A stretch of DNA of 24,941 bases from a virus. This document shows, in pieces, positions 16,499-24,910 of the stretch. A model generated the notes under the pieces. That model was not told the origin of the DNA. It ran no database searches and saw only the letters and a program-made list of their open reading frames with translations. The position numbers were made by a program, and so were the translations under genes. The stretch lies in UHGV virus genome UHGV-0019275, one strand, 5' to 3'. Numbering within the stretch: the stretch's first letter is position 1; each line of letters starts with the position of its first letter.

Positions 16499-16732
16499 TT
16501 AATGCAGCCAGCTATCGTCCTCCCATACCTGCTGCATGATTTCCATTACTCGTTTTTTATCTTCGTCCAGTTTCAAACCGCTTAGTTCAACGCCATTAGC
16601 GGAGCCCTTGCGAATTCGGATAGCAGTCTTTGGGTAAATAGGTTGAAGATTGCGGTACAGTTCAGCCTCAAGTGCATCCAATGTTGCCTGACTAATTTTT
16701 TGCTCTTTATCCAACGTGATATTGATTCTCAT
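16499..16732 (-). CDS. DinI-like protein (SOS-regulated; corresponds to the DinI-like part of the 186 Tum antirepressor)
   Basis: 77 aa, MRINITLDKEQKISQATLDALEAELYRNL...MEIMQQVWEDDSWLH, resembles the E. coli DinI family (MRIEVTIAK...ALAGEL.RR...EILQETWE..DDWF) from memory. Confidence 0.75.
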   Translation of the reverse strand: MRINITLDKEQKISQATLDALEAELYRNLQPIYPKTAIRIRKGSANGVELSGLKLDEDKKRVMEIMQQVWEDDSWLH

Positions 16733-16735
16733 AAT

Positions 16736-16918
16736 CTAATCAGCCTTATAAAAATTATCATCTTCGGTTTCGTTATTTTCGCTGTTTGCTAGGTCTGCAA
16801 TGAGAGTGAGCGCGAGCTTTAAGTCTGATGGCTTGCAGTTTGCAATCAGAGATACCTCGGCAATAAATTGCACACAAGCCCACTTTTGCTGCGTTCGGCT
16901 GAAATGTTCGCCAACCAT
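16736..16918 (-). CDS. Tum-like antirepressor N-terminal ORF, first gene of the LexA-controlled operon
   Basis: ATG 16918 with strong SD (GGGAGGG); LexA box 20 bp upstream; ends at TAG 16736-16738, in frame with the DinI-like ORF. Confidence 0.6.
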   Translation of the reverse strand: MVGEHFSRTQQKWACVQFIAEVSLIANCKPSDLKLALTLIADLANSENNETEDDNFYKAD

Positions 16919-20281: not shown

Positions 20282-20791
20282 TCAAATCAGACCAAACGAT
20301 GCGCCAATACCGCTCATGGTATCGACCACGCTCGACATAGCTGGATTAGTCTGCAGACGTGCATGCAGAGCCAGAGCCGACAATGACAACATGCGAATGC
20401 CGGAGTTAACGCTTTCAATCATGTTATGCTTACGGGCAATGGTCAGACGTTCATCAGATACCGCGCCGCTCGCCAGTTCGCCGAGTTCACGCATTGCGCG
20501 CATGACATAAGACTGCAATTTGTCTTTAGCCAACTCATTAACCGGCACGCATGGTAGGCAGTGAATCTGCGCTAAAAAACCATCAATGAGGGTTGAGTCT
20601 TCGGTCAGGTCAGTCAGCAGCCACAATTCAGACGGCGTGAACTGGTGAGGCTGTTCCGGGTTGAGCTTGTTACGTAACGTTTGAACGTTCATACCTGCAC
20701 GCTTGGCCAGCTTCGCCATATTGTGACGCTGTGCGAAAATGCGGCATGCTTCGTCATAGTGGGGATGTTTGGAAACCTGAAAATCAAACAT
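20282..20791 (-). CDS. cII: Phage CII-like regulatory protein (186 CII / CP76 family)
   Basis: Start set at ATG 20791 (MFDFQVSKHPHYDEACRIFAQRHNMAKLAKRAGMNVQTLRNKLNPEQPH...) with GAGGGA SD, giving 169 aa; second gene of the early lytic operon; matches my memory of 186 CII. Confidence 0.7.
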   Translation of the reverse strand: MFDFQVSKHPHYDEACRIFAQRHNMAKLAKRAGMNVQTLRNKLNPEQPHQFTPSELWLLTDLTEDSTLIDGFLAQIHCLPCVPVNELAKDKLQSYVMRAMRELGELASGAVSDERLTIARKHNMIESVNSGIRMLSLSALALHARLQTNPAMSSVVDTMSGIGASFGLI

Positions 20792-20823
20792 GGTTAAATT
20801 CCCTCTAACTTGCATAATCAAAT

Positions 20824-21195
20824 TCAGTTAAGAGCGGTGCGCTGGTCGATGTAGCGACAATCAATCGCTTGTTGAGTCAGCTTATCGCGCCATGCTTTTA
20901 CGTTTACGAGGGTTCGGCTTCGTTTAGCAGCTTCCTCTTTGTTGGAAAAGTCTTTGGTCGGAGCTTTGAGAAGGACTCCCTCATCGAGCCATTGCCAGAC
21001 CAGACGCTCGCTAACACCGCGAGTAGCGGCGAAGTCTTTCACAGTCATCGTGTCTGACATAGCGGAGCGAATCATTGTCTGTAGAGCTGGCAGCATGGCG
21101 GTAACGATGGCATCAAACTGTGTTGGATCTAGCAGCACAGTTTGATTTTGTGAGTTTTGCGAGTCGTGCGTCGAGATTGATTTTGCATCTGACAT
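20824..21195 (-). CDS. Apl/Cox-like HTH regulator (excisionase / lytic-operon first gene)
   Basis: 123 aa; ATG 21195 with AGGAG SD; HTH-like segment MTVKDFAATRGVSERLVWQWLDEGVL; first gene downstream of the leftward promoter. Confidence 0.6.
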   Translation of the reverse strand: MSDAKSISTHDSQNSQNQTVLLDPTQFDAIVTAMLPALQTMIRSAMSDTMTVKDFAATRGVSERLVWQWLDEGVLLKAPTKDFSNKEEAAKRSRTLVNVKAWRDKLTQQAIDCRYIDQRTALN

Positions 21196-21258
21196 ATCGC
21201 ATTATCTCCTGTTGTTTGAAATGTAGTGCAGTGGTGTGCATCTTGGTCGATGAATGCC

Positions 21259-21287
21259 ACTATAGATCGTAAAAAGTTTTCTGTAAA
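21259..21287 (-). promoter_or_regulatory. Sigma70-type early lytic promoter (pR/Pe analogue), reading leftward
   Basis: Minus strand TTTACA (21282-21287), 17-bp spacer, TATAGT (21259-21264); sits next to the repressor start, consistent with the face-to-face promoter layout of P2/186 switches. Confidence 0.5.
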
Positions 21288-21316
21288 CACCCATAAAATT
21301 ATCTGTAGGGGTTTTT

Positions 21317-22177
21317 ATGAGTTCTGAGCTTGATGTTCAGTGGCGTGTTAGTGCAACGAACGGCGTATTGGAACGCTTAATGTCAGCCTATGGGGTCAAG
21401 ATGCAAAAGGATTTGGCTGACCTGCTAGGTATCGCTAAACACAGCGTTAGCGGCTGGGTTCAGCGTGATGCAATACCTGGCAATGTCATAGTTAGGTGTT
21501 GTCTTGACACGGGAGCTGATATCAATTGGCTTGTAAATGGAGAACTTGCAAATGCAAATCACGAGCGAGCCAGTTGCAAGTTAAAAGGCAAAGAGCTTTA
21601 TGACGAGATTATGACGAATGGTGGTAAAACCGTTTTGCGTAGGATTCTTGATGCGTATGGCTTTACCATGCAAAAGGAGCTCGGTGATTTGCTCGGCATT
21701 TCCTCTGGCACAATTAGCACATGGGTAAGGCGAGATTTTTTCCCTGGTGATGTTGTTGTTACATGCGCTCTTGATACCGATACGTCACTGGAATGGTTAG
21801 CAACAGGCAAGGGGCAAATGCGAGCTAACAGGGAAGATGTCACATCTGGTTTTTCTATTAAAAAATCTCGTCTTGAATCTGGTGAGCTTAAGGATGCAGG
21901 AACGTGGCATCCTGACCCCTCAATGATTCCTTCTAACTCAGGGGAATTGATTTTTGTTGACGGTGTAGCTGCCTCTTGGCTTGTCGACTGTTCTGCTTCG
22001 AATATAAGTAATGGTCGCTGGTTAATTGATATCGACGGCGCTCTTGATGTTTTTGATGTAATTCGCTTGCCCGGTGGAAAAGTCAGGTTGTCAAATAAGT
22101 CTGCTGAGTTTGAATGCAACATTACAGACATTACTCCTGCCGGGGCTGTAGTTTTCACATTGGAAAAACACGTGTAA
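21317..22177 (+). CDS. cI: Immunity repressor, 186 CI-like, with tandemly duplicated N-terminal HTH domain
   Basis: 286 aa; residues about 16-75 and 105-165 are internal repeats (AYG..MQK.L.DLLGI.....S.WV.RD..PG.V.V.C.LDT.....WL..G), each resembling the 186 CI DNA-binding domain; upstream of int on the same strand. Confidence 0.8.
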   Translation: MSSELDVQWRVSATNGVLERLMSAYGVKMQKDLADLLGIAKHSVSGWVQRDAIPGNVIVRCCLDTGADINWLVNGELANANHERASCKLKGKELYDEIMTNGGKTVLRRILDAYGFTMQKELGDLLGISSGTISTWVRRDFFPGDVVVTCALDTDTSLEWLATGKGQMRANREDVTSGFSIKKSRLESGELKDAGTWHPDPSMIPSNSGELIFVDGVAASWLVDCSASNISNGRWLIDIDGALDVFDVIRLPGGKVRLSNKSAEFECNITDITPAGAVVFTLEKHV

Positions 22178-22185
22178 GGGACATT

Positions 22186-22514
22186 ATGAAATGTAAACTC
22201 TTTTTAGCTCTGCTTCTTACCCTTTCTTTTGGAGCCTCAGCCGCTGAAAAAACACAGGATTTAGATGGCGCTAAGTTTGGTGAGGATTGGCCGTTAACTT
22301 TTGAAAAAGCTACGGTGTCTTGTGTCAACGGTAAATATGCCTTTGTGTACGACAAAGCAACAGATGACCAAATGGTTTTGCGATTGATGGAGTAAAGTCT
22401 GGAAAGCTTGAGGGGAGCAATATTGATACTGTTTGGAAAGATAGCCCGGAGTATGCAGGCGTAAAAATTCCTTTGGATCCTGTAATGGATGCTGCAACAG
22501 CACTTTGGGAATAA
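22186..22514 (+). pseudogene. Small secreted protein gene (DUF2511/YebY-like?) interrupted by a frameshift
   Basis: ATG 22186 with AAGGG SD and signal-peptide-like N-terminus MKCKLFLALLLTLSFGASA; frame 1 stops at 22393-22395, but frame 3 continues as PNGFAIDGVKSGKLEGSNIDTVWKDSPEYAGVKIPLDPVMDAATALWE to 22514; a 1-nt indel near 22366-22370 would join them. Confidence 0.5.
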
Positions 22515-22536
22515 TTAGAGTTGCCTCGGTGACATT

Positions 22537-23693: not shown

Positions 23694-24464
23694 TTATGAT
23701 GGTAATTCTATTTCATCATGATCATCAACTTTTTCAAAGTCACCGGCTTTAATTGGGACAGGTTTAAGTTCAATTTCACCGAAACCCATTGGGAAAAGAC
23801 TATGAGTAGTGTCTTGTTTGCAAAAATAAGATACCAAATCAAATCCACAGGAAACTTTTTTTATAAAGTCATCTGATAGTAAAATGCATAAAAAAGATGA
23901 GTCTTCTTTTGTTTCTGTGTTTTTCTTTGTTGTCTTGGGGTGAATTATGTCATTTCTAAGTGACTCAAGGCTTTTAAAATCTTGCCATAGTTTTGAACCT
24001 TTAGGTGAATCACAATTTAAAATAGACGGTAGGATTTTATCTATTTTTTCACTTGTTGGTATATATCGCTCAATTAGCTCTTTGCTATAGGATTCTTTGA
24101 TTCCCTTGGCATTGTTTTTTTCATAAACATAATCATGTGGTATGCATATATTTGCAAAAGACTCAATTGCAGTATACATAGAAATAATGGCCGTCTGAAT
24201 TGATTCAAAGTAATTATAGAGTCTCGGCAGGTCTTTGTCGGAAATTTTAAAGTTTTTATGTTTGGTTTTGTGTATTTTTCCAAAAAGACTTTTATATATA
24301 GAATTGGATTTTGAGAGCTCTTTTTTTGCTGAGGATAAGAATATAGAAACGTTATTTGGGGTGAAAAAACTAACTGTCGCACCAGATAATGTGGCTTTAT
24401 CTGACATTTGCAATGTCAAATTTAAATTTTCTTCTTCTATTCTTGCTATGATTGGTCTCTGCAT
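23694..24464 (-). CDS. Hypothetical protein in AT-rich flank beyond int (start uncertain; ORF-track start 24539 is TTG)
   Basis: Long AT-rich ORF; first ATG at 24464 lacks a good SD; contains RNDIIH (an Rx4H, HEPN-like motif); no family recognised. Confidence 0.4.
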   Translation of the reverse strand: MQRPIIARIEEENLNLTLQMSDKATLSGATVSFFTPNNVSIFLSSAKKELSKSNSIYKSLFGKIHKTKHKNFKISDKDLPRLYNYFESIQTAIISMYTAIESFANICIPHDYVYEKNNAKGIKESYSKELIERYIPTSEKIDKILPSILNCDSPKGSKLWQDFKSLESLRNDIIHPKTTKKNTETKEDSSFLCILLSDDFIKKVSCGFDLVSYFCKQDTTHSLFPMGFGEIELKPVPIKAGDFEKVDDHDEIELPS

Positions 24465-24910
24465 CCTGATATCGATAATCTGGATTGTATCCTTTTTTGA
24501 CACGTTCTTCTCCGTGGATGTTTTGTGGTTAAAAAACAATGCTAATTTTAGGATGTTGGGTTTTTAAAAACTGACAACTACTTGGTAATACCTGATTCGT
24601 GCAAAAATAATTTTGAAGCTAATAATTACATTATATCAGGTAAAAATCATATAATGCGTATCAATATTACAACATATACGGAAATTTTCCAACTACCTCA
24701 TGTGTTAGCGTTTCACTCGGGTATACTAAAGTCTGTGTGGTATAAAGCTTTAAGTGGCGGCAAAGTGGCGGCGGAGGTTGCAGAATATTGCAATTCACTG
24801 CATTAAAAATTAAATTAACTAATTGTTTTTATTATAATTATATGTTTTTTATGTGGTTTTATTGGGAGCGTCTTAACTAAGATTTCGCTTAAGCGACATC
24901 CTGTTAAGAA

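Follow-up and report, generated by a model that had tools for sequence, protein, structure and literature searches.

Two DNA-binding heads in the immunity repressor of a PSP3-like prophage and a proposed division of labour between them

Results and discussion

The virus genome UHGV-0019275, a stretch of 24,941 nucleotides that we call the window and number from its first letter, carries a gene (cI, 21317..22177, plus strand) for a PSP3-type immunity repressor of 286 amino acids. This CI protein has two helix-turn-helix (HTH) domains per subunit, arranged as HTH1, linker, HTH2, linker and a C-terminal domain of the type found in the CI repressor of coliphage 186. The recognition helix of HTH1 varies widely among relatives whereas that of HTH2 hardly changes, and a palindrome, here called O2, recurs at distant positions equivalent to the auxiliary operators of 186. 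From these comparisons we think it fairly probable that an HTH duplication was followed by a division of labour between the two heads, rather than by their joint use of composite operators.

Architecture of the CI repressor

The tandem duplication of the HTH domain, first suggested by inspection of the letters alone, was borne out by several kinds of comparison. A BLASTP alignment of residues 1-89 with residues 90-286 pairs residues 14-76 with 100-165 at 52% identity over 66 positions (E 3e-23). The Pfam family PF07022 (Phage_CI_repr) matches CI in two stretches, as the original prediction had expected (E 1.3e-52, best stretch 106-169, cut-off 22 bits), and a hidden Markov model (HMM) built here places HTH domains at residues 16-77 and 105-166, both scoring E of about 1e-34. 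An AlphaFold2 model made with 29 homologues (mean predicted local distance difference test score, pLDDT, 76.7) likewise predicts two five-helix bundles and a beta-rich C-terminal domain, with an extra helix at residues 92-100 and low-confidence linkers at 78-86 and 169-177. On the plus strand, the variable head HTH1 occupies 21362..21544 (residues 16-76), the conserved helix before HTH2 21590..21616 (residues 92-100), the near-invariant head HTH2 21629..21814 (residues 105-166) and the C-terminal oligomerisation domain, recognised by PF16452 and Foldseek, 21854..22165 (residues 180-283). CI is colinear from end to end with 28 homologues through HTH1, the conserved helix, HTH2 and the C-terminal domain, and residues G91, K92, Y95, G102 and G103 are invariant in the alignment.

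The cI product is a member of the 186-type CI repressor family, with both the PF07022 and the PF16452 (Phage_CI_C) domains; the latter lies at residues 180-277 (E 1e-20, 74.3 bits against a cut-off of 27). PHROGs assigns the protein to phrog_4, transcriptional repressor. The best structural matches of the model are 186 CI (2fjr) and its C-terminal domain (2fkd), and Foldseek aligns the C-terminal domain to 2fkd_A with a target TM-score of 0.88 and a root-mean-square deviation of 1.8 Å. Likeness of this domain to LexA and lambda CI is only a distant one of fold (Foldseek E 1e-5 to 1e-3), and Peptidase_S24 is not among the best 25 of the 27 Pfam families that match CI at E up to 1. The P2 C-type repressor (about 99 amino acids) gave no match to CI in Pfam or PHROGs, and C and CI repressors have been reported to be impossible to align (PMC3448106). 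Since each subunit has two HTH domains where the 186-type family has one, the protein is a variant of that family; 186 CI itself has 192 amino acids, the approximate length given in the original prediction. The duplication is ancient, as had also been proposed, since identity between the copies is no more than about 50% and many genera have this architecture, at 43-87% protein identity.

The second head is ancestral and almost invariant

Three comparisons bear on which head came first. The structure of 186 CI (2FJR) aligns colinearly to residues 105-280, that is, to HTH2 and the C-terminal domain. A scan with one genome per species confirmed 114 loci, and among the 80 Enterobacterales loci retained, about 73 encode a two-headed CI. 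Six loci (L081-L086), from Ewingella, Chimaeribacter and Rahnella, encode CIs of 196 amino acids with a single HTH. The only head of these proteins has an HTH2-type recognition helix, GLSSGTISTWVRR, and their N-terminus, MQLDELEGGKAVL, is the counterpart of the helix before HTH2, matching window residues 94-107 (LYDEIMTNGGKTVL). HTH2 has 79% identity to the HTH of P0133, the representative of a single-HTH protein cluster and identical at its N-terminus to L086, compared with 50% identity to HTH1. We conclude from these results that HTH2, the preceding helix and the C-terminal domain make up the ancestral protein and that HTH1 and linker 1 are the added copy. Fusion of a foreign HTH gene, with linker 1 derived from the ancestral 5' regulatory region, was considered and dropped, as the closest relatives of HTH1 are in the HTH2 lineage, in keeping with an internal duplication.

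The two heads have evolved very differently. Mean pairwise identity among the 29 homologues is 0.61 for HTH1, 0.87 for HTH2 and 0.62 for the C-terminal domain, and among about 39 class representatives amino-acid identity is 0.53, 0.78 and 0.41, respectively. In the same representatives the four-fold synonymous difference is 0.71, 0.68 and 0.71. Synonymous sites are thus equally saturated in all three regions, so that HTH2 is under unusually strong purifying selection rather than recently shared. Its recognition helix, ISSGTISTWVRR, is near-invariant and reads ISSGTISTWVRR[DEN][FY]F across the 80 loci, whereas the HTH1 helix has at least 40 variants in the same loci, with variation at HTH1 positions 40-52. 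HTH1 nevertheless keeps the core residues that it shares with HTH2 (R20, Y25, Q30, L33, W47, R50, C61, T65, W71, L72 and G75) in every sequence.

A conserved palindrome at distant sites

All six single-HTH loci carry an O2-like palindrome 55 nucleotides before the cI start codon. The consensus, ACTTGCA-NN-TGCAAGT, spans 16 base pairs and was scored out of 14, with a threshold of 11/14. In L084 it exactly fills the 17-nucleotide spacer of the predicted lytic promoter pR (TTGACA-17-TAGATT). The Ewingella, Rahnella and Chimaeribacter proteins share with the HTH2 unit their recognition helix, N-terminal helix and C-terminal domain type, and with the two-headed phages the O2 operator type; they differ in being without HTH1 and in having O2 in the pR spacer, where two-headed phages have class-specific palindromes. 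On these grounds we propose that O2 is the operator of the HTH2-type head. In another single-HTH cluster, P0141, which has the helix GAGTGTISTWVKRGYF, no O2 was found at 10/14 or better.

At the threshold of 11/14, 47 O2 matches occur in 43 representative loci, compared with 5.7 +/- 2.4 in shuffled sequences. In two-headed loci the matches lie away from pR and form two clusters, one at +182, counted from where HTH1 starts, with 24 loci and the other at -528 to -558 with 11 loci. The window has exactly two matches at three or fewer mismatches. One, ACTTGCAAATGCAAAT (21544..21559), has a single mismatch to the consensus and lies inside cI, in the DNA that encodes linker 1, at a position equivalent to FL of 186. 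The other, ACTTGCATAATCAAAT (20808..20823), at the FR-equivalent position, is a weak match (11/14) in the 32-base-pair gap between the stop codon of the apl-like gene and the start of cII. It is 15 nucleotides beyond the CII box, and in 186 FR is 13 nucleotides beyond an identical box.

The complete genomes of PSP3, Midge and SW9, which represent three HTH1 classes, have exactly three O2 matches each, always in the gap between D and ogr/pag, in linker 1 of cI and in the gap between apl and cII. The D-pag site was not used in building the O2 pattern, and in PSP3 it overlaps a plausible promoter (TTGCAA-16-TATTAT). Escherichia coli CH458 has a cI 100% identical to that of the window, and in the 12 kb of its genome that lie left of the window sequence O2 is matched once, between D and the ogr-like gene. 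These three positions are those annotated for CI in the 186 record (GenBank U32222), where FL is inside cI at +269, FR is between apl and cII, and two pB sites are between D and B.

Within cI, the O2 site shows constraint on the DNA itself. Two of its codons are fixed among homologues, alanine as GCA in 27/27 sequences (gene-wide frequency 0.29) and leucine as CTT in 16/16 (gene-wide 0.23), in a linker that is predicted to be disordered.

An 8-mer, TTTGCRAG, had been considered as an HTH2 half-site and led to the full O2 palindrome; its matches in the apl-like coding region (21146-21190) could reflect coding conservation and are not claimed. In that 5' coding region, TTTTGTGAG and TTTTGCGAG, in tandem, and TTTTGCATC resemble O2 half-sites and overlie the -35 element of the predicted promoter pL. 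These stretches might serve as weak sites for wrapping, comparable to the ill-defined ones on the pL side of 186, or could simply encode the low-complexity SQNSQNQ N-terminus.

The pR operator and the variable head

The predicted lytic promoter pR (21259..21287, minus strand) faces cI, with a -35 element TTTACA (21287-21282), a 17-nucleotide spacer and a -10 element TATAGT (21264-21259). It has 10/12 consensus matches in a sigma-70-like scan, and its hexamers are at conserved positions across HTH1 classes. The spacer between them is class-specific and often a clean palindrome, as in AATCGCA-TT-TGCGATT, TCCCGCA-AAA-TGCGGGA, TGCCGCA-TAA-TGCGGCA, ACACG-TTA-CGTGT and ATCGT-TTTT-ACGAT. The GCA...TGC core of several of these also occurs in O2, in line with the homology of the two heads. 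The same HTH1 helix occurs with the same pR spacer despite a different left-flank family (L024/L025 compared with L014, and L055 compared with SW9/L013). Identity of the HTH1 helix and identity of the physically adjacent pR spacer are correlated (Mantel r 0.60, p 2e-4), also when the C-terminal domain is controlled for (partial r 0.58), compared with r 0.33 for the HTH2 helix and r 0.34 for the C-terminal domain.

In the window the candidate HTH1 operator region (21265..21316), which is class-specific, comprises the pR spacer GATCGTAAAAAGTTTTC, the -35 element and the sequence upstream to the cI start codon. It contains two direct repeats 22 base pairs apart, AAAGTTTTCTGTA (21273-21285) and AAAATTATCTGTA (21295-21307). 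These were rejected as HTH1 operators, as the second copy is not conserved in the Pantoea members of the same HTH1 class. Within this class only CACTATAGATCGTWAAAARTTWYCTGTAAA of the region is conserved as far as Pantoea, and it forms no obvious palindrome. Another candidate CI operator, the inverted repeat AGTGGTGTGCATC-N6-GATGAATGCCACT (21230-21261), was also set aside, its left arm belonging to GTGCA/GGTGT direct repeats that are independent of HTH1 class.

The pR spacer, the -35 element and HTH1 fall within an immunity cassette of about 320 base pairs (21261..21580), the only strongly diverged block in comparison with phages Midge and SW9. Identity to these phages is at least 0.9 up to 21260, 0.25-0.65 within the cassette and about 0.8 after it, and the three sequences are identical or nearly so from the apl-like start codon to the -10 element of pR. 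The E. coli prophage cI of H64 (NZ_CP128888.1) matches the window only from about 21584 onward, at 84% identity. This boundary coincides with the right end of the cassette and suggests a recombination breakpoint in linker 1. The distinct immunity specificity suggested in the original prediction is therefore retained in part: it is apparently set by HTH1 together with the pR operator, and not by two-headedness as such.

A proposed division of labour and its alternatives

We propose that an ancestral single-headed CI of 186 type duplicated its N-terminal HTH and that the copies then split their tasks. Dimers of HTH2 would occupy O2 at three places, namely the FL-like site, the FR-like site beside the CII-dependent promoter, and the counterpart of pB at the promoter of the late activator, while dimers of HTH1 would occupy an operator in or around the pR spacer and so set immunity. 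By analogy with 186, the C-terminal domain may join dimers into a larger oligomer, and heads bound at pR and at the flanks may cooperate through looping or wrapping of DNA. With only HTH1 and the adjacent pR operator (about 320 base pairs) needing to change, immunity could be swapped in a single recombination event with the three distant sites kept.

Several observations weigh against this scheme. The assignment of heads to sites is purely comparative, and binding of the conserved Tum antirepressor could likewise account for the constancy of HTH2. In the HTH1 class to which the window belongs, the pR spacer shows no clear palindrome, and linkage alone inflates the correlation between HTH1 and the neighbouring spacer. 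Two O2 matches in the window are not significant as a count, since 35 of 100 shuffles reach it, and the FR-like site has three mismatches. The score of 11/14 is reached in only 24 of 40 two-headed representative loci at the FL-like position and in about 11-15 at the FR-like position. In addition, the two-headed locus L045 (Serratia rubidaea) has an O2, ACTTGCTTATGCAAGC, near its pR region, about 77 nucleotides before HTH1.

Two of these points, the lack of a clean palindrome in the window's pR spacer and the placement of O2 in L045, would also fit a composite operator, in which the two heads of a single subunit contact neighbouring half-sites of different sequence at pR and jointly define an asymmetric operator of unusual spacing, and with it immunity. 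The flexible linker of about 28 residues in the model could let the two heads reach adjacent major grooves, and the window offers direct repeats 22 base pairs apart at 21273 and 21295. However, the second of these repeats is not maintained within the class, and the pR spacer of most classes has the two-fold symmetry expected for two identical heads. The region 21196-21316, where the original prediction had proposed to map operator repeats, does contain pR and repeats, but no O2 match at three or fewer mismatches. The O2 sites are complete palindromes on their own, separated from pR by hundreds of base pairs or by about 25 kb. The earlier proposal of composite or differently spaced operators thus does not agree with symmetric, class-specific pR palindromes that covary with HTH1 alone and a separate, distant palindrome that matches HTH2, and we regard it as unlikely.

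We consider it similarly improbable that HTH2 is kept mainly for a protein-protein role, as a docking site for TumA/TumB or as a spacer in the oligomer, with O2 bound in some other way or by both heads. The tumA and tumB genes are present and 98% conserved relative to PSP3, any antirepressor active on different immunity types would require a target that stays constant, and HTH2 is more conserved than the oligomerisation domain itself. But the single-HTH relatives have only an HTH2-type head, which must therefore bind DNA there, and it is their pR spacer that carries O2. Docking of Tum would leave unexplained a distribution of O2 that follows the three annotated CI sites of 186, and docking and DNA reading are in any case not mutually exclusive. 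A third alternative, to which we give very little weight, is that HTH1 lacks DNA binding, being a remnant that is decayed or regulatory, so that HTH2 alone runs the switch and the variable DNA upstream of cI is merely fast-evolving linked sequence. HTH1 does evolve much faster than HTH2, and in locus L095 the gene is split by two in-frame stop codons into an HTH1-only reading frame and one for HTH2 and the C-terminal domain. Yet the core of HTH1 is retained throughout and its HMM score is as strong as that of HTH2, and the pR regions of two-headed phages are without O2 and have class-specific palindromes that track the HTH1 helix even when the flanks differ.

Comparison with the 186 switch

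The single head of 186 CI is reported to recognise two distinct sequences (title of Shearwin et al. 2002, which is reference 5 in PMC3675496). As annotated in the 186 record, the sites at pR differ from the ATTCAC-N5-GTGAAT sites at FL, FR and pB. Three operators at 186 pR, two helical turns apart, bind the CI wheel, and FL and FR, about 300 base pairs away, aid repression of pR and allow activation of pL (PMC3675496). The PSP3-type system shares with 186 the HTH family and the fold of the C-terminal domain (PDB 2FJR, 2FKD), the arrangement of pR facing pL, auxiliary operators at the FL, FR and pB positions, and a Tum-type induction module. It differs by its two heads and two site types, against a single head in 186 CI, and by operators that are unrelated in sequence. 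From these parallels, work that falls to one head in 186 CI appears to be shared by two in the PSP3-type protein. As for the 14-mer wheel of dimers that wraps or loops DNA in the 186 family, the likeness here is confined to homology of the C-terminal domain fold, by which a comparable assembly may be imagined.

Relatives and other multi-headed repressors

The window is a PSP3-like prophage of E. coli (Eganvirus; 186-like, Peduoviridae). Its CI is 97.9% identical over all 286 amino acids to that of Salmonella phage PSP3 (AAN08403, orf29 of AY135486) and 99.7% identical to that of Escherichia phage vB_EcoM-613R3, with only about 32% identity to 186 CI. The window shares with PSP3 the gene order int, DUF2511 gene, cI, facing the gp30 (apl-like) gene and cII, as well as the sequence of the switch region and the three O2 sites; the PSP3 CI differs by a few substitutions only, the window being an E. 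coli prophage copy. The cI gene was found in 68 of 5,426 complete E. coli genomes, in full length in 42.

The two-headed form is not unusual but the common one in the PSP3 group, an outcome that the original prediction had named as counting against it. The same architecture occurs in PSP3, SEN1, SW9, SI22, Midge and RCIP0057, as well as in most of the Enterobacterales loci and in hundreds of protein clusters. Nearly all of the best 120 database clusters consist of proteins of 278-290 amino acids with the same Pfam content, coming from Klebsiella, Enterobacter, Salmonella, Escherichia, Citrobacter, Cronobacter, Pantoea and others. When proteins are clustered at 50%, most relatives are single-headed, with about 190 amino acids; about ten representative clusters are two-headed (285-294 amino acids), and other two- or three-headed forms have 313-358 amino acids. 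Nilsson et al. 2011 (PMC3448106) speak of "a longer C-terminal domain" in the PsP3 CI. In the literature searched we found no description of the tandem-head architecture of PSP3-type CI, and the two-headedness of this common and already sequenced protein seems to have gone unrecognised there. The presence of two heads in PsP3 CI corrects the published description.

A tandem of Phage_CI_repr domains before Phage_CI_C is also found in the CI of Klebsiella phage 4LV2017 (313 amino acids) and in P0137, P0184, P0196, P0199, P0228, P0234 and P0237. Within such lineages the heads are alike, with 61% identity in 4LV2017 (L005/L103), 69% in P0184 and 53% in P0199, compared with 24-47% to either head of the PSP3 type. 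That the heads of these three are closest to each other suggests independent duplications, or gene conversion within each lineage. An operator of the 4LV2017 lineage was sought through its single-HTH relative P0153, and no clear one emerged. P0237 is possibly three-headed, and P0214 (525 amino acids), with four weak matches, may have still more heads.

The split repressor of L095 (1213-2070), a metagenome contig with the P0135 locus, consists of an HTH1-only open reading frame (ORF) of 69 amino acids, the two in-frame stops (TGA and TAA) and an ATG-started ORF of 189 amino acids for HTH2 and the C-terminal domain, whose N-terminus is like that of single-HTH CIs. Either the repressor is naturally made from two genes here, or the gene is in decay.

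Neighbouring switch elements and genes

The genes around the switch are arranged as in PSP3, with cII and the apl-like gene followed by cI, the DUF2511/YebY gene and int, and with tumA and tumB beyond the replication gene. A candidate weak lysogenic promoter pL (21177..21205, plus strand; TTGATT, 17 nucleotides, CATTAT) was read by eye; at 8/12 it is below the threshold of the scan. It would be face to face with pR and straddle the start codon of the apl-like gene, an arrangement like that in the 186 annotation. Between pL and pR there are direct repeats, GTGCA-N5-GTGCA (21226..21245), that are kept irrespective of HTH1 class. Repeats of this type (21206-21258 region; GGTGT or GTGCAT in other families) are one helical turn apart and located where 186 has its Apl sites, which are direct repeats with the same spacing (PMC7498355). 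By this analogy they are probably sites for the Apl/Cox-like (gp30) protein.

The apl/cox-like gene (20824..21195, minus strand) encodes 123 amino acids of the PSP3 gp30 family. Its product has no Pfam match, and the PsP3 protein has been called a singleton without detectable domains (Nilsson et al. 2011, PMC3448106); an HHpred match to a DNA-binding protein is given in the Midge annotation. Inside this coding region (21112-21146) is a 14-nucleotide inverted repeat, ATCAAACTGTGTTG, 7 nucleotides, CAGCACAGTTTGAT (93% complementary), which is neither a CII box nor O2.

The cII gene (20282..20791, minus strand) encodes 169 amino acids from MFDFQ... (PF06892, E 3e-46), and the CII box ATGTTTG-N13-CAAACAT (20764-20792) is identical to that of 186. 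Further away, tumA (16736-16918) and tumB (16499-16732), both on the minus strand, form an SOS-induced antirepressor module as annotated in PSP3. TumA is 98% identical to that of PSP3, and a DinI domain is found in the module (E 7e-24).

The DUF2511/YebY-family gene (22187-22536, PSP3 gp28), between cI and int, has a 10-base-pair deletion near 22370 relative to PSP3 and vB_EcoM-613R3. The frameshifted, truncated product points either to a pseudogene or to an assembly error. Just beyond int is an AT-rich ORF of 281 amino acids (23694-24539, minus strand) with only weak HEPN-like PADLOC matches (E 1.3e-4). No more than 19 of 5,426 complete E. coli genomes have the 1.4-kb segment with this ORF in full length, and the ORF may represent cargo or a defence gene at the attachment site.

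Implications

The 186 switch is among the best quantified alternatives to that of lambda, with a wheel-shaped repressor, DNA wrapping and the distal sites FL and FR. An open puzzle in this system is how one head reads two unrelated types of operator. If the proposed division of labour is correct, the PSP3-type repressor would be a two-domain counterpart to the single, dual-specificity head of 186 CI, and the DNA that encodes its linker would do double duty as a cis-regulatory site. Such a division would give a genetic handle on the switch, as repression of pR would be separable from long-range effects, and HTH1 with its operator would provide orthogonal parts on a common scaffold for synthetic circuits. 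If the assignment of heads to sites is wrong, the finding reduces to a common domain architecture that had already been sequenced.

A division between the heads would also explain how immunity diversifies freely, with the many HTH1 helix variants carried on a constant HTH2 background. We raise more tentatively, and without favouring it, the possibility that HTH duplication arose independently several times in 186-type CIs, each time separating an evolvable immunity head from a frozen head that serves fixed distal operators. If this is true, repeated duplication would be a modular answer to the need for dispersed operators to co-evolve whenever immunity changes.

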